In this document: piece by piece, positions 10,577 through 20,656 of the stretch | Layout of the letters: the number at the start of each line of letters is the position of its first letter | Numbering within the stretch: the first letter of the stretch is position 1 | Source of the DNA: a virus | Taxonomy: Duplodnaviria; Heunggongvirae; Uroviricota; Caudoviricetes | Length of the DNA stretch: 20,656 bases | Virus record (IMG/VR): IMGVR_UViG_2778261572_000002 | Coordinates: 1-20,656 of that record | Reading direction: 5' to 3' (one strand) | Made by a program: the position numbers and the translations under genes | The notes under the pieces: model-generated | Seen by the model: only the letters and a program-made list of their open reading frames with translations | Database searches by the model: none | Told to the model about the DNA's origin: nothing

Positions 10577-11998
10577 TTACAAAATCATGTCGATGCGACC
10601 GGCAAACACATGCAGGCCGTTAACCACATCCGCCGGAACCACGCAGTCGAGACGGTTTGCATCTTTCCCGTTTCGCTGAACGCGCAGCTTTGCCTTGTTC
10701 GCTTCCACGTTCTCCAGAATTTCCGCTTCCTCCAGCTTGATCAGCACGTCATACAGTTCGCTTTCCACTTTTGCGATAGTGCGGGTGCTGAGTTTTTCGC
10801 GCGGGAAGCGAAGGCTGATGCGTTCGCGGCACGCCTTGCGGGTGTAGTCCAGCGTTCTGATGGACGTGATATCCAGTAACGAGACGTCAGTCACGCCCTG
10901 TGCGTTAACCGTGTACGTACTGACCGCACGCACAATCTGTACCGTGTTACCCGGGCCAACCTCAACCGGCGTCAGGCCGTTATGCAGAGCGTTTTCCTGT
11001 TCGTTACGGCTTTCACGCTGTGACATGGCGACCACATCCAGCCCTGACAGCGCCAGCGAGTTCAGCGGACGCGCCGGGTCTTCCTCGCCCGCCATCACTG
11101 CGCCGTAGATGGCGGCCAGCACCGCTGGCAGCTTCACGGAGCCGCGATACCAGGGGATGGACACGCGCCCGCTGTTCACACCGGCTGCCAGGGTGATCCC
11201 GTTTCCGAGACTGCCCGTCCAGCCCGCACAGCCAATCGCGCCGCGCTGTTCCATCGCGTTCCCGGTTTTCTCCAGATGCTGCTTCAGGGCGGCAAGGGCT
11301 GGCGTGGTACTGAACGGACAAATCAGAATGTTGTGACCGGCGGCAAAGACCGCATCCAGTGCGGGCTGAATATCCGGATCCATTTCACCGTTCGCCATCG
11401 GCGTGGCGCTCACGGTCAGACCACCTGCCGTGGTGGATGCTGACAGGGTGATGTCATTCCCCCAGGCACCTTTGGTCCGGGTGGTGACCGTCAGCTGAGA
11501 GGCTTCCGATTGGTATTCCCCCGTAACCAGAAGCGAGGGCGTCTGCGTCATTGCTTCCACCAGTGCCGGAATGATTTTCGACGGTTCATCACCGGTTTCC
11601 ACATCCACCGTGACCTGCTCACCGGCAACCCATACCGACAGCGTGCCGCTGCTGGTTGCCGTGCCACTGACGGTAACTGCGCCGGTTGCCGCCTTTCCTG
11701 CGCCACTGTCTGCAATACCGATAACATCCAGTTGCAGATAGCTGTTGGCATTAATGGCCGCGCGCGCCATTGCAGCGGCCAGCGAACCGGCCCCGAAATA
11801 CACATCCGCTTCGTCTTCGGAATACACGGAAACGGCATTCAGGGGCGTGGCGGTGCCGCCTGACAGCATCGGGCCAATCACCAGAACACGCTGTTCATTA
11901 CCCGGCAGCGTGTTAACGGCCAGCCGGGTATTAAACTCAAAATGCACACCGGGCTTACGGATGCCGCCCGAAATGGTGTCAAACTGAATTTCACTCAT
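10577..11998 (-). CDS. Contractile tail sheath protein (Mu L-like)
   Basis: 473 aa; AGGTGG SD 6 nt upstream of the ATG. Size and position (before tube, after head-completion genes) are typical of myovirus sheath proteins. Confidence 0.9.
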   Translation of the reverse strand: MSEIQFDTISGGIRKPGVHFEFNTRLAVNTLPGNEQRVLVIGPMLSGGTATPLNAVSVYSEDEADVYFGAGSLAAAMARAAINANSYLQLDVIGIADSGAGKAATGAVTVSGTATSSGTLSVWVAGEQVTVDVETGDEPSKIIPALVEAMTQTPSLLVTGEYQSEASQLTVTTRTKGAWGNDITLSASTTAGGLTVSATPMANGEMDPDIQPALDAVFAAGHNILICPFSTTPALAALKQHLEKTGNAMEQRGAIGCAGWTGSLGNGITLAAGVNSGRVSIPWYRGSVKLPAVLAAIYGAVMAGEEDPARPLNSLALSGLDVVAMSQRESRNEQENALHNGLTPVEVGPGNTVQIVRAVSTYTVNAQGVTDVSLLDITSIRTLDYTRKACRERISLRFPREKLSTRTIAKVESELYDVLIKLEEAEILENVEANKAKLRVQRNGKDANRLDCVVPADVVNGLHVFAGRIDMIL

Positions 11999-13283: not shown

Positions 13284-13625
13284 TTACTTCTCCTTTTTGT
13301 CCGCTTTTTGTGTTTTCTGTGCGGCGTTCAGCTGTGCGGTCAGTTCACTGACTTTCTGGCGTTCTTCTTCCAGTTGCGCCGTCAGTTCGCTGACTTTCTG
13401 ACGCTCGGCATCCAGCTGTGCGGCCAGTTCATTACCCCGGGCCGCGTCGTTCTGACCGGACGCTTTATCACGCTCCACCACAATCAGCATGGGGTCCGCC
13501 TTCAGCACCGCCAGCTGTTCCGGGGTGAACGCATCCACAGGCCATTCCTTCGTGGTTGCGCTGTGTGCCACACCGCAGCGGCGAAAACCCTCACGGCGGG
13601 CGGTAATTTCAATCACCTTTTCCAT
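13284..13625 (-). CDS. Mu gp35-like small protein with C-terminal coiled-coil repeat and Lys-rich tail
   Basis: 113 aa; GGAG SD 6 nt upstream of ATG 13625. C-terminal half has a tandem 14-aa repeat (AQL[DE][AE]ERQKVSELT x2) and ends ...KTQKADKKEK. Synteny position directly after the major capsid gene. Confidence 0.55.
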   Translation of the reverse strand: MEKVIEITARREGFRRCGVAHSATTKEWPVDAFTPEQLAVLKADPMLIVVERDKASGQNDAARGNELAAQLDAERQKVSELTAQLEEERQKVSELTAQLNAAQKTQKADKKEK

Positions 13626-13628
13626 GCA

Positions 13629-14537
13629 TTACTCCGTCGTACCATCTGAACCAAATGCCATCTGCCAGAAGCCATAACCGCCGTTACAGCGCGCTTCGGC
13701 ACCAAACCGAAACTTCTTACGCATGAATACGTTGTCGCTGTTGTAGTCCGTCTGCTCCACAAAAACCGGTTTCTTACGCTGCTGGAAGATCAGCGGCTTG
13801 ACCGAGCGGGAGGTGTCGAACAGGAACCATGCAGAATCCGACGTCAGCTCCGGCATCACCAGCACTTCAGCGGTGTTGCGGTACGGGTTCGGCGTACCGT
13901 CCGGGAACTTCTCGGCGGTCATCAGGTAGTTCGCGTCATCTTCCAGCGCCGGTGGCACAACCAGCAGATTCGGACGGATTCTGAGAGATGCGCCTTCGTC
14001 ATCTTTCAGGCTGCGCATGGCCGTACGGGCGGCACCGTAGGAGGCTTTCGCTTCAGCAAGCGACCCCACTTTGAGTTTTTTGGTGCCTTTGTTGGACACC
14101 GATTTACCGGCGACCAGGTGGTCGGTATCAAAGAACATCTGGCCGTCGTAACAGGGACTGGTAAAACCGTTATTGATAAGGGACGCCACAATATCTGCCG
14201 GGAGTTCTGCCGCTGACTGGCCCGCGTCTCTGGCCTGAAGGGCATAACCCATAATCTGGTCGTCCTCGATGTCATTGCGATCGACTTCAACCGTGGCTTC
14301 CCAGTCCTTGTTGCGGATGGTGTAGTTGAAGGCTTCCAGAGATTTAACGTTTTTATCACCGACCCACTCGCGCATTTTCGGGAAACGAGTTAACCAGCTG
14401 TAGTCGTTCTCCTTGCTGCCTGATGGCACTTCCATTGCCACTTTTTGCCAGTCAGTGGGGGTCTGGTCGTAGGCTTTCTGATAGGTGGTTTTAAGATTAA
14501 TAAAAATCTGGTTGACGTTTTTAGCGTTGACTAACAC
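13629..14537 (-). CDS. Major capsid protein (Mu T-like)
   Basis: Start moved from the track's ATG 14579 to GTG at 14535-14537 (MLVNAKNVNQIFINLKTTYQ...), which has a TAAGGAG SD 6 nt upstream and begins after the upstream gene's stop (14548-14550). About 302 aa. Confidence 0.8.
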   Translation of the reverse strand: MLVNAKNVNQIFINLKTTYQKAYDQTPTDWQKVAMEVPSGSKENDYSWLTRFPKMREWVGDKNVKSLEAFNYTIRNKDWEATVEVDRNDIEDDQIMGYALQARDAGQSAAELPADIVASLINNGFTSPCYDGQMFFDTDHLVAGKSVSNKGTKKLKVGSLAEAKASYGAARTAMRSLKDDEGASLRIRPNLLVVPPALEDDANYLMTAEKFPDGTPNPYRNTAEVLVMPELTSDSAWFLFDTSRSVKPLIFQQRKKPVFVEQTDYNSDNVFMRKKFRFGAEARCNGGYGFWQMAFGSDGTTE

Positions 14538-14547
14538 GTTTCGCTCC

Positions 14548-14943
14548 TTAACTGAAATAAACCCAGACGCCATCGCCACAGATGCCGATCACTTTACCGG
14601 CGACAGGACGGGCGCTGCTGTTGTCGGTTTTTGCCACGGTCACGCTGTCTTCCACGTAACACAGCTTACCGACCTGCGATTGTGTGACCGGGTCTGAGGT
14701 GCTGTTCGCCATCAGAAAGGATTTGCCGCAACGCACCAGAACGGTGACATCACCATCGCTGCCGGTGCTGTTATCCGCCCAGCCATCAGACACGCCCAGC
14801 GTAATCTGTGAGGCCGTGGCACTGGCCGGAACGGCATAACCGGATGCGTTAACGGCCACCATATGACCGCCAAAAATTTCGGTTGCAGCGGCAACCGGCA
14901 CCGGGTTCAGCTCGCCGTCACGGTAGGGGGTATTGCGATCCAT
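14548..14943 (-). CDS. Hypothetical head protein between protease and capsid (possible decoration/cement protein)
   Basis: 131 aa; ATG 14943 abuts the protease stop (TAA-ATG) with an AGGAG SD. Ser/Thr/Gly/Val-rich, beta-like composition, not scaffold-like. Function not assignable from sequence alone. Confidence 0.55.
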   Translation of the reverse strand: MDRNTPYRDGELNPVPVAAATEIFGGHMVAVNASGYAVPASATASQITLGVSDGWADNSTGSDGDVTVLVRCGKSFLMANSTSDPVTQSQVGKLCYVEDSVTVAKTDNSSARPVAGKVIGICGDGVWVYFS

Positions 14944-16113
14944 TTACTTATCTCCTGCGTAACGGGCGACATCCTCTGGATCGACGCCCATCATTGAACA
15001 AATGGCGATATCGACATCGACGTCATCGCCGGTTTTAATCTGCGCCGGGGCAGGCGACGGCGTTTTGGGTGGTTTGCCGCCGGTCTGGGTGCTGCTGAGT
15101 GCGGCAAGCGGGGCGGTTTTATCCAGCCAGGTTTTAAAACCGTTGATATCGCGGCTGGCGTAATCTTTCGCCCAGTCTTCCAGCGTCGGAAGCAGTCGTC
15201 CGTCAGACAGCGCCGCCTGAATCAGTGCCCCGGCTTCGGCCTCACCGGACTGTTGCGCCAGTACGGCATAACGTCCCTGAAGTTCTTCATATGCCGTCAG
15301 AGGGATATGCTTCGTCGGGTCATAGGCATTTGCTGACAGGCTGGCGATTTGCTCGTCTTTCTGATTCAGCAGGGCCAGCAGGCCAACAGAAGCCGCTGCC
15401 GTTCCTTTGCCACCGGAAATAGCATCAATAATTTTTTGCAGTTCATTTTTAATGTCTTCCGGCGTTGAGGTTGCCGGGAGGTTCAGCGTCCAGCGCAGAC
15501 TGGACAGCAAATCGCTTAACAGTTCTTCATCCACTGTTGTGGTCTCCGTTTCAGTTGACAGACTCGCCAGACGGCTGGCCGCAGCCAGCATGACCGCGTC
15601 CATACCGTCGAGCGCCGGGGTATTGGTCAGCGCAGCATGTAACAGCTCCAGCACTTCGCCGCGCTTGTTGTAGGCAAAAACAGGGGAAATAAATTTGTAC
15701 TCACCGGCGGCAATCATGGCCGCCGCGTTCTCCGTCCACTCCACACCAGTGGCATACAGGCCCGCACCTTCTCGCCATTCCACCTGGCTGAACCAGCCCG
15801 CCGCCGGGGCGGGCTTGCCGTTGTTTACGGCGCGCAGCGTCTGATGTTCGTAATCAATGACAAATGGCGTGGTACGGGCTGCCACCTGCGCGACAAGCTG
15901 CGCGGCCAGTTCGGCAGTCAGCACCCATTTACCGCTTTCGACTTCATCGGTATGTGGGCGACCATCCACCGCACTGAACTCGCCCGCCGGAAACAGCTGG
16001 ATTTCGCTGTGGGTTGCTTTAGTAATTTCGAGGCTTAATGCCGCAATGTTCATCTTCATACGCGGCATGATGACGAAAGGGGAACACGGGGTACTGTTGA
16101 GGGTGTTCAGCAC
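14944..16113 (-). CDS. Head maturation protease / scaffold (Mu I-like)
   Basis: Large ORF preceding the capsid gene. The track start is GTG 16113; alternative ATGs at 16068, 16059 and 16053 (MPRMKMNIAAL...). None has a clear SD, so the N-terminus is uncertain by up to 20 codons. Confidence 0.75.
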   Translation of the reverse strand: MLNTLNSTPCSPFVIMPRMKMNIAALSLEITKATHSEIQLFPAGEFSAVDGRPHTDEVESGKWVLTAELAAQLVAQVAARTTPFVIDYEHQTLRAVNNGKPAPAAGWFSQVEWREGAGLYATGVEWTENAAAMIAAGEYKFISPVFAYNKRGEVLELLHAALTNTPALDGMDAVMLAAASRLASLSTETETTTVDEELLSDLLSSLRWTLNLPATSTPEDIKNELQKIIDAISGGKGTAAASVGLLALLNQKDEQIASLSANAYDPTKHIPLTAYEELQGRYAVLAQQSGEAEAGALIQAALSDGRLLPTLEDWAKDYASRDINGFKTWLDKTAPLAALSSTQTGGKPPKTPSPAPAQIKTGDDVDVDIAICSMMGVDPEDVARYAGDK

Positions 16114-16820: not shown

Positions 16821-17983
16821 GATGCCTCCGGGGTATCCTGCATAACCCAGTCTGTCAGCGCGTCATCCTCAACCGTCACCACCGACCAGCGGTCGCCCGA
16901 CTGTAACGCATACCGCCACGCGTTGCCGTCCTGTGTGACATGCTCTGCCCGTTCGATGGTCTGCTGCATCAGCACATAGTCGGCGGCGGTCGGGGGCGTG
17001 TCTGTTGCACTGAGGCGCTTCATGACGTCAGCCGTAAGGTTTACCGTCTGCCGTGCAGCGCCTGTGGCGGCGACCTGTTCCGGTGAACGGATGGCCAGCG
17101 GATATCGCTGGCGCGCATCCAGTTCGCTGACGTTCGCCAGTCCCCGGGAAAAATCCGGCCCGGTCAGGGTGCCGGTGACATACTGGCGAGCGCTGCGGTA
17201 ATCGTATTTTTCCAGTTCCGGCTGCCATGCCGCTTTGCCGGGGTTAAAACCGAAGCCCGGGTCAGCGGTGTATACGGAGCCATCCGGCATCTTCAGCCCC
17301 ATTGTTCTGATGGTCTGGCCCGGCTGGCCATATTCCTGCTCAACCTCAACCAGTCGCCCCTCGCTGCTCTGCACCGTCAGGCCATATTTCTCCACATCAG
17401 ACGCCGAACGCGCCCGGATACGGCAGCGGCATCCGTATCCGTCCGGCGCGTAGAAATACTCCCAGACCGGGTCATCCGCCCGGGCGGTAAAACCGTTCAG
17501 GGCGGCGTGTTTCGGGCGGGTGTGAAGGTCCATCACCGCCACGCGCTCAAAATAAGGCCGGTCGGCCACGTTCGCCATCTGCTGCTGATAGCGTCCGGCG
17601 TTGTAGGACGACTGAATATTGGTATCAAATATCGTGCGCAACCGGCGCGACGTCAGCTGCCTGCCGTGCAGTTCGCCGGTGTCCTCGTCCACAATCAGCT
17701 TTTTACCCAGCCAGCCTTTTGATTCCAGCAGTGGTTCCAGTTGTGCAGCAAACTCCCGGAACGTCCCGCCGTCAGCCAGTGCGGCCGTCAGGCCATCACG
17801 GATATCCTTCAGCACATCCAGTTTCAGCACGCCCGCCACCGTGAACGCCCGGGCGTGTGCGATGTCCTTCACATCGTGCCAGCGGAAGCCGATAACGTAT
17901 CCCTTGCTTTCGAAATACTTAATCGCTTCTTCCGGCTTCAGGGTGTACGCATACCCCAGGTCAACATCGTCAGCTGTCGGCAT
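16817..17983 (-). CDS. Head morphogenesis protein (Mu F-like minor head protein)
   Basis: 388 aa directly downstream of the portal; contains ...HTRPKHAALNGFTARADDPVWEYFYAPDGYGCRCRIRA..., characteristic of the Mu F / SPP1 gp7 family. Confidence 0.85.
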   Translation of the reverse strand: MPTADDVDLGYAYTLKPEEAIKYFESKGYVIGFRWHDVKDIAHARAFTVAGVLKLDVLKDIRDGLTAALADGGTFREFAAQLEPLLESKGWLGKKLIVDEDTGELHGRQLTSRRLRTIFDTNIQSSYNAGRYQQQMANVADRPYFERVAVMDLHTRPKHAALNGFTARADDPVWEYFYAPDGYGCRCRIRARSASDVEKYGLTVQSSEGRLVEVEQEYGQPGQTIRTMGLKMPDGSVYTADPGFGFNPGKAAWQPELEKYDYRSARQYVTGTLTGPDFSRGLANVSELDARQRYPLAIRSPEQVAATGAARQTVNLTADVMKRLSATDTPPTAADYVLMQQTIERAEHVTQDGNAWRYALQSGDRWSVVTVEDDALTDWVMQDTPEAS

Positions 17984-19565
17984 TCAGTCGCCCCCAGATA
18001 TCCGCCACAAAGAATGCCTGCGTCAGCAACTGCCGCAGCGTGTCATCCGGCAGCTCCGGCCATGCTTCCGCCAGTACGTTCATGGCCTCGTCTGCATCCC
18101 GGCCTTCCTGTATGGCCTGCACCAGTGGGGCCACCAGCTCGTTCATTCCCTGCGCGATGGCTTCTGCCGGAAGTTCTGCCCGGTCGATGGCGCGTTGTGC
18201 CGGGTCGTCCTCTCCGTTGTCCTGCTGACTGAGTGCAGCAACATTCAGTCGCTCACGCAGCTGGCTGAGGCCCGCCTGCACAGGCAGACGCTGTGCCACC
18301 GGCACCAGTACCTCTTCGCCGTCTTTCGGGGTGGGGATACCGGTTTTTTTGCGTACCCACGACGCCGGGATATCCTTCATACCCACACTGTTGAGCAACA
18401 CGCTGACGGCGTCCGCCACGCCCTTAATGTCGGCTTCCTGCTGCACATCAAACACCAGTCGCGGCAGACGGCGGGGCGGGATATCCTGCCAGCCGTTGAG
18501 GCTGGCCATCATCTGTATCAGGCTGCTGAACATGCCGGACAGCTGGCGTGCATCGGCGGCCAGAATGTCGTGCCGGACCTCGTTATGCACATTACCCAGC
18601 GCGTTGGTGGAGGTTTTACCGTCAGCCTGGCTGGTCAGCGTACTGCCCAGAATCACTTTTGAGGTGGTGCGCTCTGCCCATTCCACCATCGACATGAACG
18701 CCTCCGGTCCGCCGGACGCGGCCTCCTTGAACTCAATTTCGTTACCCTGCGGCAGGGCTGCCACCGCTTCATGACCCAGATTGACCAGCGCCTCAAGAAT
18801 GTTGTCCCGGTCCTCGTCACTGGTGCCCTGTGCATAGTAGGCAATACGCGCCGGAAGGCCGTAAATCTCCAGAAATTCTGCCATATCACGCAGCGCAAAG
18901 TTTTTGAACAGATATGGCCAGACCAGTACGCGGAACAGGCCGGATGAACCCAGGAACCCCGACCGGGCGTTGTAACGGTGAACCAGCCAGCCGAACGGCC
19001 ACAGCGCGGAACCGTCCTTACCATCCTCCCCACGATTGCCGTCATCCAGACGGAGTTCGTCATTGTGTTCCGGCAGGGTAATAAACCAGTTATGCGGGCG
19101 CAGCGTCACCGCATCCGGTAACCACGTTTTATCCACGAACGCCCAACTGATTTCCTGACAGCTGAAGCCATAACCGACACTGCTCATCCCGTTGAGGATG
19201 ATGTCCTCCATGTCCGGGATGCCGTGCAGCCATTCATCCACGGCGGCAGCCAGCTCCTTTTCTGCCTTCGAGGCATTGCGGGGCGGCTCCACCGACCAGT
19301 CCAGCGTCAGCAACGCTTTTTTGCGCTTTTCCATCTCGGCGAACAGATGGCCATCACGTTCTTCCATATCCGCAAACAGCATCGCCTGCGCCGGAAGATA
19401 GCCGCGCTCGGCGGCTTCCAGAATGCGCGGCAGTTTTCTGATGTTCAGACCACGGGACGGGTGGTCGGGATAAATGCGCAGCCGTTCCGCCACTCTGACC
19501 GACTGCGTGGTTTTGAGTGCCTCACGTTTCAGCGGGCGTCCGTAAATATCAACAAGCTGTGCCAT
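17970..19565 (-). CDS. Portal protein (Mu gp29-like)
   Basis: Start moved from 19571 to the second ATG at 19563-19565 (MAQLVDIYGRPLK...): GGAGG directly abuts the first ATG (spacing 0) but is 6 nt from the second, which overlaps the terminase TAA by 1 nt. About 531 aa, immediately after the terminase. Confidence 0.85.
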   Translation of the reverse strand: MAQLVDIYGRPLKREALKTTQSVRVAERLRIYPDHPSRGLNIRKLPRILEAAERGYLPAQAMLFADMEERDGHLFAEMEKRKKALLTLDWSVEPPRNASKAEKELAAAVDEWLHGIPDMEDIILNGMSSVGYGFSCQEISWAFVDKTWLPDAVTLRPHNWFITLPEHNDELRLDDGNRGEDGKDGSALWPFGWLVHRYNARSGFLGSSGLFRVLVWPYLFKNFALRDMAEFLEIYGLPARIAYYAQGTSDEDRDNILEALVNLGHEAVAALPQGNEIEFKEAASGGPEAFMSMVEWAERTTSKVILGSTLTSQADGKTSTNALGNVHNEVRHDILAADARQLSGMFSSLIQMMASLNGWQDIPPRRLPRLVFDVQQEADIKGVADAVSVLLNSVGMKDIPASWVRKKTGIPTPKDGEEVLVPVAQRLPVQAGLSQLRERLNVAALSQQDNGEDDPAQRAIDRAELPAEAIAQGMNELVAPLVQAIQEGRDADEAMNVLAEAWPELPDDTLRQLLTQAFFVADIWGRLNADS

Positions 19566-20656
19566 TACCATCCTCCTGAACCAAAACGCCCGCCACGGTC
19601 ACGCCCGGTGCTGCGTGGGGTGTGAATCTGAAATTTTGCGCTGCGCGATACCGCCAGCGTCCACAGCATGTGCAGACAGTCCGGGCCATCATCGTGGTCG
19701 GCTTTGGGGTAGTGGCGCAGCTGGTCAATCAGTGTCTGATGTGTGTGGCTGATACGAATCAGGCCGTTGGCCATATGCGGCTGAAGGGATTCAATACGCA
19801 GCGCCTTATCCTCCAGCGGGATGACCGGCAGCGCCGGAACCGGTACGCCCAGCGCCGCCGAACGCTCAACCAGCACGGTACGCAGAAACTCCTGAAACTG
19901 GACGGACTCAAACGACCAGCACAGGCAGTGATATTCCCGCTGATACTTAATCACGTCTTCGATAAGTTTATTCGGCAGACGTCGGCGGATATCGGCTTCA
20001 ACCACATCCAGAATGCCGGTAAAGCGGTTAAAGCCCCCCACGAGAATGGCCGACGGGTCGCGGTTTTTGTTTTTCTTCCCGAGACTGGGGTCAACAGCAC
20101 CATAAAACACCCATTCATCAAGACGGTTAACCCAGAACTTAATGCAGCCCGCAAACAGCGCATCTTCACCGCTGACCGGGTCGTTCTGGTATTCAGAATC
20201 AAAGGTGTCATGACCGTCACGGACACGGATTTTCATCAGCGCCAGCAGGGGACGCGCCGCCCATGACACCACTGACCCGGCGAGCATGTCGGCTTCGTTC
20301 TGCCGGTAAAGTGCCTCCGCCGCTTCCGGCTGTTTGTTGCGGATGAGTTCTTCCCACTCGTCCCACAGCTTCATATTGGCAGGCCACTGAATAACGGCCT
20401 TAAAGCGGGCCGTTTTCCACATCGGGTTATTGAGTGTGCGCGACAGTACGGAGTCGTAATGCAGGATGGTTCCGATATAAATAATATCGGTTTTACCGCC
20501 AGCCTCACCCAGCGGCATCACGGTTTTGGTGAGCCAGTCGTGCAGCTTGTCGCGCTGCTCCGGGTTACGCACCATCTCGTCGTTCTCGATGTCGTCGAGG
20601 ATGACCAGGTCAGGACGGTACGGACCGTGGCGCAGACCACGCAGTTTTTTACCACT
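19565..20656 (-). CDS. Terminase large subunit, C-terminal ~360 codons (N-terminus beyond window end)
   Basis: The reading frame is open from the window end (...LVILDDIENDEMVRNPEQ...) to the TAA at 19565-19567. Contains acidic motifs (...DHDDGPD...) consistent with the terminase nuclease domain. Directly upstream of the portal. Confidence 0.8.
   Translation of the reverse strand, partial: SGKKLRGLRHGPYRPDLVILDDIENDEMVRNPEQRDKLHDWLTKTVMPLGEAGGKTDIIYIGTILHYDSVLSRTLNNPMWKTARFKAVIQWPANMKLWDEWEELIRNKQPEAAEALYRQNEADMLAGSVVSWAARPLLALMKIRVRDGHDTFDSEYQNDPVSGEDALFAGCIKFWVNRLDEWVFYGAVDPSLGKKNKNRDPSAILVGGFNRFTGILDVVEADIRRRLPNKLIEDVIKYQREYHCLCWSFESVQFQEFLRTVLVERSAALGVPVPALPVIPLEDKALRIESLQPHMANGLIRISHTHQTLIDQLRHYPKADHDDGPDCLHMLWTLAVSRSAKFQIHTPRSTGRDRGGRFGSGGW

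Follow-up and report, generated by a model that had tools for sequence, protein, structure and literature searches.

What does a 131-codon gene encode when it stands between the protease/scaffold gene and the major capsid gene of a Mu-like phage? The gene, here called ORF131, lies in a 20,656-nucleotide stretch of Caudoviricetes DNA (IMG/VR record IMGVR_UViG_2778261572_000002), which we refer to as the window. It carries, without interruption, the late operon of a Mu-like myovirus prophage of E. coli. A preliminary description, made from the letters alone, suggested that the product would fit a capsid decoration or cement protein. That reading is supported by the protein's family, the presence of homologs in virions, the predicted fold, and a link to a cement superfamily of Pfam. 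We consider it probable (roughly 0.8) that ORF131 is an accessory capsid decoration (cement) protein, arranged as homotrimers on the outer surface of the gpT-type head. The idea is already known, having been proposed for homologs in 2014, and ORF131 is an ordinary, under-annotated gene in a clade first flagged as ORF h of phage PaMx73.

The ORF131 gene and its place in the head operon

On the minus strand, the late operon reads portal, F-like gene, G-like gene, gpI-type protease/scaffold, ORF131, gpT-type capsid, FluMu_N gene, and gp36/J-type adaptor, with the sheath gene further on. The features that bear on the argument are as follows.

17970-19571, minus strand: portal gene, in the late operon
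14944-16113, minus strand: Mu gpI-type protease/scaffold gene, given as the longest ORF (PF10123, E 1.2e-98; PHROG 328); the PGAP start maps to 16059
14952-14956, minus strand: Shine-Dalgarno sequence AGGAG of ORF131, inside the 3' end of the protease/scaffold gene and 8 nt before the ATG (read from the sequence)
14944-14946, minus strand: TAA stop of the protease/scaffold gene, abutting the ORF131 ATG at 14943-14941 (read from the sequence)
14548-14943, minus strand: ORF131 coding sequence, candidate capsid cement/decoration protein (from the ORF listing; 131 aa, 13.5 kDa, pI 4.5, predicted all-beta, PHROG 1731)
14911-14943, minus strand: ORF131 codons 1-11, N-terminal arm, predicted unstructured, with the conserved motif D2-R3-N4-T5
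14752-14775, minus strand: ORF131 codons 57-64, the loop with the strongest conservation across the family (D57 N58 x x G61 x x G64; alignments A1 and A2)
14544-14549, minus strand: Shine-Dalgarno sequence AAGGAG for the major capsid gene; it overlaps the stop TAA of ORF131 at 14550-14548 and lies 6 nt before the GTG at 14537 (read from the sequence)
13629-14537, minus strand: Mu gpT-type major capsid protein, 302 aa (PF10124, E 9.6e-96)
13284-13625, minus strand: FluMu_N / HI1506-related protein, 113 aa, with a C-terminal coiled coil (PF17891, 31.6 bits against a cutoff of 25.8); annotated "neck protein" in one record
10577-11998: tail sheath gene, further down the late operon

The coordinates given for the gene in the preliminary description are exact; the strand, which had gone unstated, is minus. 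Its account of the upstream junction, a TAA-ATG boundary with a good Shine-Dalgarno sequence, is borne out by the sequence itself. The minus-strand sequence 5' of ORF131 is AGGAGATAAGTAAATG, with AGGAG at 14956-14952 and the stop codon directly abutting the start. A stop and a start in this arrangement constitute translational coupling from the protease/scaffold gene to ORF131. The placement between protease and major capsid genes is likewise correct (PF10123 upstream, E 1e-98; PF10124 downstream, E 1e-95). The major capsid gene most likely starts at the GTG at 14537 rather than at a longer GTG at 14579 that would overlap ORF131, because the AAGGAG sequence fits the former and the PGAP start in homologous E. 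coli loci maps to 14537.

The composition of the protein also agrees with what had been described, Ser/Thr/Gly/Val-rich and unlike a scaffold: Val, Gly, Ala, Ser, and Thr together make up 53% of residues and Asp, Glu, Lys, and Arg 16%, whereas the scaffold half of the gpI-type product is 23% charged and 26% Ala plus Leu. ORF131 is a real gene, given its 7,779 profile matches (see below), the high confidence of its structure model (mean pLDDT 95.3), and a comparison with a 94%-identical E. coli copy, from which ORF131 differs at 20 nucleotides, 13 of them third codon positions, with the reading frame undisturbed. PGAP calls the same coding sequence in other E. coli genomes, with the product "hypothetical protein." Of 5,426 complete E. 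coli genomes, 55 have the head segment of this prophage, and the 12 RefSeq E. coli records listed all give the ORF131 gene as "hypothetical protein."

Family, distribution, and presence of homologs in virions

The preliminary description saw no obvious family signature in this protein. This stands for Pfam and NCBIfam, scans of which returned no match to ORF131, and falls for PHROGs: residues 1-130 match positions 6-134 of the 135 positions of PHROG 1731 ("virion structural protein"), end to end, with an E value of 1.3e-55. The profile search that had been recommended as a check therefore yielded a virion structural family, and it brought up no homology to helical scaffolds or to nonstructural proteins. 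ORF131 is 44% identical to the JBD5 gp39 protein over its full length (E 2e-32), and a profile of 38 homologs retrieves 7,779 cluster representatives at E ≤ 1e-3 (exhaustive search, representatives at 50% identity). Searches of PDB sequences, both with ORF131 alone and with the 38-sequence profile, found no relative of solved structure. Apokedarcidin (E 0.45 and 0.12) and SSB came up in these searches at chance level and were discarded as noise.

PF09956, the former DUF2190 (COG5471), has been renamed Phage_cement_2 ("Phage cement protein") in Pfam. ORF131 does not match this model even at E ≤ 1 and stays below its gathering cutoff of 24 bits, a cutoff passed by two relatives, P0067 (31.8 bits; E 1.7e-13 to ORF131) and P0071 (49.2 bits). 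The model is matched by 6 of the 38 close family members and by 5 of 59 wider representatives, and some family members match PF22758 (E217 gp24 / Pam3 gp6), XM1 gp53 or, weakly, lambda gpD. About 90% of the sampled clade goes undetected by the PF09956 and PF22758 models. Because its own score fails and those of P0067 and P0071 pass, we file ORF131 as belonging to a sister clade inside the superfamily and not as a Pfam member. Judged by these profile scores, the clade is a divergent branch of the Phage_cement_2 superfamily, outside Pfam's own membership criterion.

In annotated phages, tblastn finds a homolog in 125 records. Most of these are transposable siphophages of Pseudomonas (D3112, DMS3-like, JBD5, PaMx73, and H70) at about 44% identity; a Mu-like phage of Klebsiella carries a homolog of 63% identity, and others occur in phages of Rhodobacter, roseobacters, Ralstonia, Faecalibacterium, and Myxococcus. 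In every case inspected, including JBD5, the Klebsiella phage, and vB_PeaS-P1, the gene occupies the slot between gpI-type and gpT-type genes. The same order is kept around a distant metagenomic homolog (P0064), and P0067 is directly followed by gpT, its upstream side being cut by the contig end. The names given to the homologs (virion structural, capsid stabilizing, capsid fiber, capsid scaffolding, or hypothetical protein) conflict, so the function is still unsettled in the databases.

Direct evidence that homologs are part of the particle comes from published proteomics. In CsCl-purified virions of PaMx73 analyzed by MS/MS, no accessory gene product other than that of ORF h was found (Cazares et al. 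2014, PMC4378225). The gene sits between the protease-scaffold and major head genes and is confined to one of two similarity groups of these phages; its product was modeled on lambda gpD and proposed to be a decoration protein, and the same authors noted that lambda gpD is likewise encoded between protease/scaffold and capsid genes (PMC4378225). We tie ORF h to ORF131 because PaMx73 has a gene with the annotation "Virion structural protein" whose DNA is 99.2% identical to that of the gene for JBD5 gp39, a protein itself 44% identical to ORF131. In two roseophages, the product of the gene in this slot, ORF35, ranks with the most abundant proteins of the virion, at 86 and 90 peptides compared to 172 and 197 for the capsid protein (PMC5488378). 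The ORF131 homolog in the Pelagibaca phage vB_PeaS-P1 is the ORF35 gene of that slot. Per residue (129 versus 298 aa), the ORF35 counts in vB_PeaS-P1 are about equal to those of the capsid protein, a rough indication of a stoichiometry near 1:1 between homolog and capsid protein. Virion presence and high abundance are thus known from the literature for homologs, and we would extend them to ORF131 by analogy.

The gene is accessory. Mu has no gene between I/Z and T, and in JBD30 the protease gene is directly followed by the capsid gene, with no gene in the slot. JBD5 is a Pseudomonas siphovirus with the cement gene, and Mu is an E. coli myovirus without it. The cryo-EM capsid of Mu contains no cement protein (PMC11915804). 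The JBD30 cryo-EM structure was considered as a source of a homolog, since JBD-type phages prevail among the tblastn matches, and rejected, as the minor capsid protein in it, gp39, is not related to ORF131 and its gene follows downstream of that for the capsid protein; JBD30 gp37, suggested by an offset from the JBD5 numbering, is the gpI-type protease in the JBD30 record.

Capsid sequences divide in a corresponding way. The capsid protein of the window is 56-68% identical to those of phages that carry the cement gene (56% for JBD5; the Klebsiella phage is also in this range) but only 40% identical to those of Mu and JBD30, which do not. The JBD30 capsid protein is 49% identical to that of Mu and 41% to that of JBD5, although JBD30 and JBD5 share a genus. 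In these comparisons, which cover only ten sequences, capsid lineage appears to go with possession of the cement gene rather than with host, genus, or tail type. Such codistribution is as expected for a physically interacting pair, and the gpT-type capsid protein would be the binding partner of ORF131.

Predicted fold, conserved residues, and the trimer question

A fold prediction had also been recommended, and it gave an all-beta model whose best solved matches are nearly all trimeric capsid decoration proteins. In the AlphaFold2 model of ORF131 (mean pLDDT 95.3, pTM 0.86), 12 strands make up a compact, all-beta domain; there is almost no helix, the exception being one three-residue turn at 88-90. 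Residues 1-11 are without secondary structure (pLDDT about 80). Foldseek searches of PDB reached probabilities of up to 1.0 but with E values of 0.014-1 and TM-scores of 0.33-0.68. The list consists mostly of capsid decoration proteins: YSD1 gp16, the phi29 gp8.5 base, HFTV1, phiCD508 chain C, mycobacteriophage Adjutor, Borrelia BB1, Sf11, lambda gpD, P21 SHP, TW1 gp56, and XM1. By TM-score, the best solved match is phiCD508 chain C (TMq 0.59, TMt 0.68), the base of the phi29 gp8.5 head fiber reaches 0.51-0.55, and the match to gpD and SHP is partial (0.33-0.46 over only 61-77 alignment columns). MoeA, which according to a review of decoration proteins is the only cellular beta-tulip (PMC7602432), is among the PDB matches as well. 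Structural matches in BFVD include proteins named "capsid fiber" and "head fiber" as well as DUF2190 and COG5471 proteins, and the predicted structures of the latter two groups have TM-scores of 0.54-0.71 to the ORF131 model.

The beta-tulip is defined by a five-stranded antiparallel barrel with a helix between strands 3 and 4 and by a second subdomain to which the barrel is joined; the ORF131 model has only its three-residue helical turn, and its Foldseek E values are weak. All beta-tulip subfamilies are trimeric on the capsid and are bound mainly via an N-terminal arm (PMC7602432). In alignment A1, D2, R3, and T5 are at least 90% conserved; the loop residues N58 and G61 do not vary at all, and D57 and G64 hardly vary. 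In the more diverse alignment A2, N58 and G61 are again invariant and G64 is nearly so. The loop may serve as a trimer or a capsid interface. The N-terminal D-R-N-T motif is near-invariant yet unstructured in the model, which fits an arm that would become ordered upon the capsid. By analogy with the known decoration proteins, codons 1-11 would encode a capsid-binding "Dec-arm."

Relatives with repeated domains bear on the oligomeric state. Tandem copies of the domain occur in 19 of the best 150 representatives, and six of these 150, each about 510 aa long, have exactly three copies followed by a shared C-terminal domain. An alignment-based scan of viral contigs located such triple-domain genes in place (a single-sequence scan of the same kind of contigs with the triple-domain P0071 found nothing). 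On two contigs, L009 and L010, a chain of 512-526 aa with three tandem domains occupies the slot of ORF131: the genes run from the Mu-type protease through the triple-domain protein to the gpT capsid protein and then gp36. The loop motif D57-G64 is kept in all three copies, whereas the N-terminal motif is kept only in the first. Between proteins, same-position copies share 44-47% identity, compared to 34-40% for copies at different positions, which indicates that the triplication is old and maintained. A triple-domain chain in the slot of a single-domain protein is suggestive of a homotrimer hard-wired as a pseudo-trimer, and hence of the trimer as the working unit. This argument from fusion is suggestive and not proof, because relatives with two, four, and five tandem domains also exist.

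Proposed role, alternative readings, and known systems

From these lines of evidence we infer the following course of events. Translation of ORF131, as part of the late head operon, would be coupled to that of its two neighbors, the protease/scaffold gene on the upstream side and the major capsid gene on the downstream side, and its chain would fold into a compact all-beta domain. After expansion of the T=7 gpT-type shell, homotrimers would bind the outer surface at the junctions of three capsomers, on the threefold and quasi-threefold positions, with about 420 copies per head, or roughly one per capsid subunit. The flexible, conserved N-terminal arm would reach neighboring capsid subunits, and the protein would clamp the capsomers so that they withstand the pressure of the DNA and stress from the environment. 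In this scheme, trimer formation, binding at the threefold sites, the part played by the arm, and stabilization are all proposed features rather than direct observations. The stabilizing effect may be small or conditional, as the heads of Mu and JBD30, both T=7 (Mu: PMC11915804), are stable without a protein of the ORF131 type.

The neighboring FluMu_N gene complicates the assignment of the binding site. Its 113-aa product is related to JBD30 gp39 (BLASTP E 9e-4 over the resolved domain of gp39). JBD30 gp39 (PDB 8rkc_B) is a dispensable minor capsid protein with a beta-tadpole fold that forms trimers at threefold and quasi-threefold axes. Given this relationship, the threefold site that we propose for ORF131 could be wrong or shared. 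On sequence grounds, two accessory proteins of the capsid may be produced by the prophage, and they may share threefold sites or compete for them. The gene product downstream of the capsid protein (the FluMu_N counterpart) went undetected in virions of PaMx73 and the roseophages, in which the ORF h homolog was detected (PMC4378225, PMC5488378), and Mu gp35 is unresolved in the cryo-EM map (PMC11915804). By analogy, this pattern favors ORF131 as the main decoration here, without settling the matter.

A broader conjecture starts from the observations that Mu is undecorated, that JBD30 carries FluMu_N-type trimers, and that the window encodes both a PHROG 1731 and a FluMu_N protein. Decoration of gpT-type heads might be a swappable, two-component system, in which cement and FluMu_N proteins could both occupy one capsid, as a double layer at the threefold positions or at distinct sites, with the coiled-coil tail of the FluMu_N protein pointing outward. 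The cement gene and its matched capsid gene would then move as one module, and the triple-domain chain would be a hard-wired trimer in related phages. We regard this extension as tentative and rather doubtful.

Several other readings compete with a cement role. The most credible of them holds that ORF131 decorates the surface chiefly for adhesion or display, as does a head-fiber base of the phi29 gp8.5 type, and not for reinforcement. That base is among the best fold matches, BFVD matches include long fiber-like proteins with collagen, tail-fiber, or Mtd-type domains, and about 90 of the best 150 representatives exceed 160 aa, mostly by C-terminal extensions; one of the relatives, P0079, weakly matches the C terminus of the phi29 head fiber (E 0.0028, below the cutoff). 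ORF131, however, is a bare 131-aa domain with no extension to display, and we consider a mainly adhesive function unlikely. It would also be compatible with a stabilizing role, and ORF131 would still be a decoration protein. A scaffold or assembly chaperone that is present only in the procapsid and leaves before maturation is very unlikely. One Pseudomonas phage record does name a homolog "capsid scaffolding protein," a BFVD match in mycobacteriophage BigNuz is named "scaffolding protein," and a slot beside the capsid gene is typical of scaffolds too, but these annotations look position-based. The gpI-type gene upstream already supplies a scaffold (in Mu, the nested Z product), the compact all-beta ORF131 with its 16% charged residues is unlike helical, charged scaffolds, and homologs are abundant in mature, purified virions.

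The label "virion structural protein" leaves the location unspecified, and the adjoining FluMu_N gene has been called a neck protein, so that a minor internal head, portal-proximal, or neck protein might be entertained. We find this even less credible than a scaffold: the per-residue peptide counts in roseophages, similar to those of the capsid protein, are a misfit with a neck protein of 6-12 copies, and all informative fold matches are lattice decoration proteins. Least of all do we believe in a phage recombinase of the RecA/RadA type, a legacy name of COG5471/DUF2190 that survives in the UniRef entry of relative P0045. ORF131 has no Walker A motif (GxxxxGK[ST]), is all-beta without an alpha/beta ATPase core, and is encoded inside the head operon, and Pfam has since renamed PF09956 "Phage cement protein."

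With a cement role as the preferred reading, the ORF131 gene can be renamed as encoding a putative capsid decoration (cement) protein of the Phage_cement_2 superfamily. Its clade comprises 7,779 representatives, no member of which has a solved structure, so a single cryo-EM map of any one member would give the whole clade a structural anchor. Decoration proteins of the small, trimeric kind, gpD among them, serve as scaffolds for phage display and nanoparticles, and a Mu-type equivalent, together with a natural single-chain "covalent trimer," could suit display at defined stoichiometry. Capsid lineages that track the cement gene across hosts and tail types would represent a coadapted gene pair that moves as a unit in mosaic genomes.

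Compared with known systems, ORF131 shares different properties with each. JBD30 gp39 forms trimers on a T=7 gpT-type head of the kind encoded in the window but is unrelated to ORF131, has another fold, and has its gene downstream of that for the capsid protein; in the window, the FluMu_N protein (13284-13625) is the one related to gp39. Lambda gpD, P21 SHP, the phi29 gp8.5 base, TW1 gp56, and YSD1 gp16 are, like ORF131, small and mostly beta, and they bind as trimers at threefold or quasi-threefold sites largely through an N-terminal arm; gpD is monomeric in solution and trimeric on the capsid. These proteins, however, have no sequence similarity to ORF131, and the canonical beta-tulip possesses a helix between strands 3 and 4, whereas the ORF131 model has almost no helix apart from the three-residue turn. 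Trimers of the phiCD508 protein gp48 (PDB 9gb0 chain C) decorate a T=7 head, which is built from 415 capsid subunits and carries 420 copies of gp48 in all. Each trimer contacts nine capsid subunits, and the protein has an N-terminal arm. Judged by gene number, it is encoded directly before the capsid gene (gp49), as is ORF131, but the two proteins are 15% identical with no detectable sequence homology, and phiCD508 is a Clostridioides myophage with a capsid of an unrelated lineage. The Pfam families Phage_cement_2 (PF09956) and Phage_cement (PF22758) are matched by relatives of ORF131 and not by ORF131 itself. PaMx73 ORF h, D3112 orf34, and JBD5 gp39 (Casadabanvirus) belong to phages unlike that of the window, being from Pseudomonas siphoviruses rather than from an enterobacterial Mu-like myovirus with a sheath gene, and identity is 44%. 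They are nevertheless alike in family, gene slot, and size (about 13-14 kDa), and the ORF h family is accessory too, with some phages of the genus carrying it and others, JBD30 among them, lacking it.

Capsid lineage, gene starts and the putative cement gene

Directly 3' of ORF131, the candidate capsid cement gene, lies the major capsid gene, whose product varies with the presence or absence of the cement gene itself. Capsid genes were located in the window and at compared loci, including that of JBD30 (L004):

window 13629-14537, minus strand, capsid gene
L001 4409-5317, capsid gene
L004 5610-6524, capsid gene
L020 2639-3556, capsid gene

The capsid protein of the window is 56% identical to that of JBD5, which has a cement gene, and 40% identical to that of Mu, which does not. 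The capsid proteins of JBD30 (also without a cement gene) and Mu share 49% identity, and those of JBD5 and JBD30 share 41%. Capsid-protein identity thus tracks cement gene presence rather than host or genus, and this pattern suggests that the cement and capsid genes travel together as a module.

Two start positions were considered for each of the genes that flank ORF131:

14535-14579, minus strand, capsid gene start region (GTG 14579 versus GTG 14537)
14944-16113, minus strand, longest ORF of the protease/scaffold gene (GTG 16113, 389 aa)

The mechanical ORF list places the capsid start at GTG 14579, giving a 32-nt overlap with ORF131. The alternative, GTG 14537, is preceded by AAGGAG, overlapping the ORF131 stop codon, yields a capsid protein of 302 aa and is equivalent to the start chosen by PGAP in other E. 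coli genomes; it is almost certainly the true one. For the protease/scaffold gene, PGAP uses the equivalent of position 16059 (371 aa) in related E. coli genomes, whereas the longest ORF begins at GTG 16113.

Tandem-domain and extended relatives

Some relatives of ORF131 carry two, three, four or five tandem cement domains in a single chain (cluster representatives P0070-P0075, P0081, P0090 and P0093, and proteins of viral contigs L009 and L010):

L009 4944-6524, triple-domain gene in the Mu-type protease–gpT slot
L010 5001-6539, triple-domain gene in the Mu-type protease–gpT slot

Triple-domain genes take the same position as ORF131, with the Mu-type protease gene on one side and the gpT gene on the other. 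Their products (about 510 aa) have in common a C-terminal domain of ~110 aa, which has no match in Pfam, and look like natural covalent pseudo-trimers.

Roughly 90 of the top 150 representatives (P0079-P0218 list) have more than 160 residues, mostly owing to C-terminal extensions. One of these long proteins, P0079, bears a weak likeness to the C-terminal end of the head fibre of phi29 (below cutoff, E 0.0028). The cement domain may have broad use in anchoring displayed modules to the capsid.

Accessory and scaffold proteins in databases and in JBD30

Legacy names, either "DUF2190 family protein" or "RecA/RadA family phage recombinase," persist on some relatives (among P0012, P0028 and P0045). 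Applied to a family of all-beta capsid proteins, the recombinase name is a misnomer.

Directly after the capsid gene lies a further small gene, whose product RefSeq names "HI1506-related protein":

13284-13625, minus strand, 113-aa FluMu_N protein

Its N-terminal part is a FluMu_N domain (PF17891, 31.6 bits), its C-terminal coiled coil holds the near-perfect repeat KVSELTAQLEEERQKVSELTAQL, and it can be aligned to the domain resolved for JBD30 gp39 (PDB 8rkc_B), a minor capsid protein that forms trimers. Together, these features argue that it is probably a second capsid accessory protein.

The JBD30 paper (PMC11445458) assigns the scaffolding role to gp33 and that of prohead protease to gp37. 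In RefSeq NC_020198, however, gp33 is labeled "minor head protein and DNA pilot," as is Mu gp30 (gene F), and gp37 is a gpI-type protein; in Mu, the gpI-type gene yields both protease and scaffold (nested Z). Given these labels and the parallel with Mu, the JBD30 scaffold assignment may need a second look.
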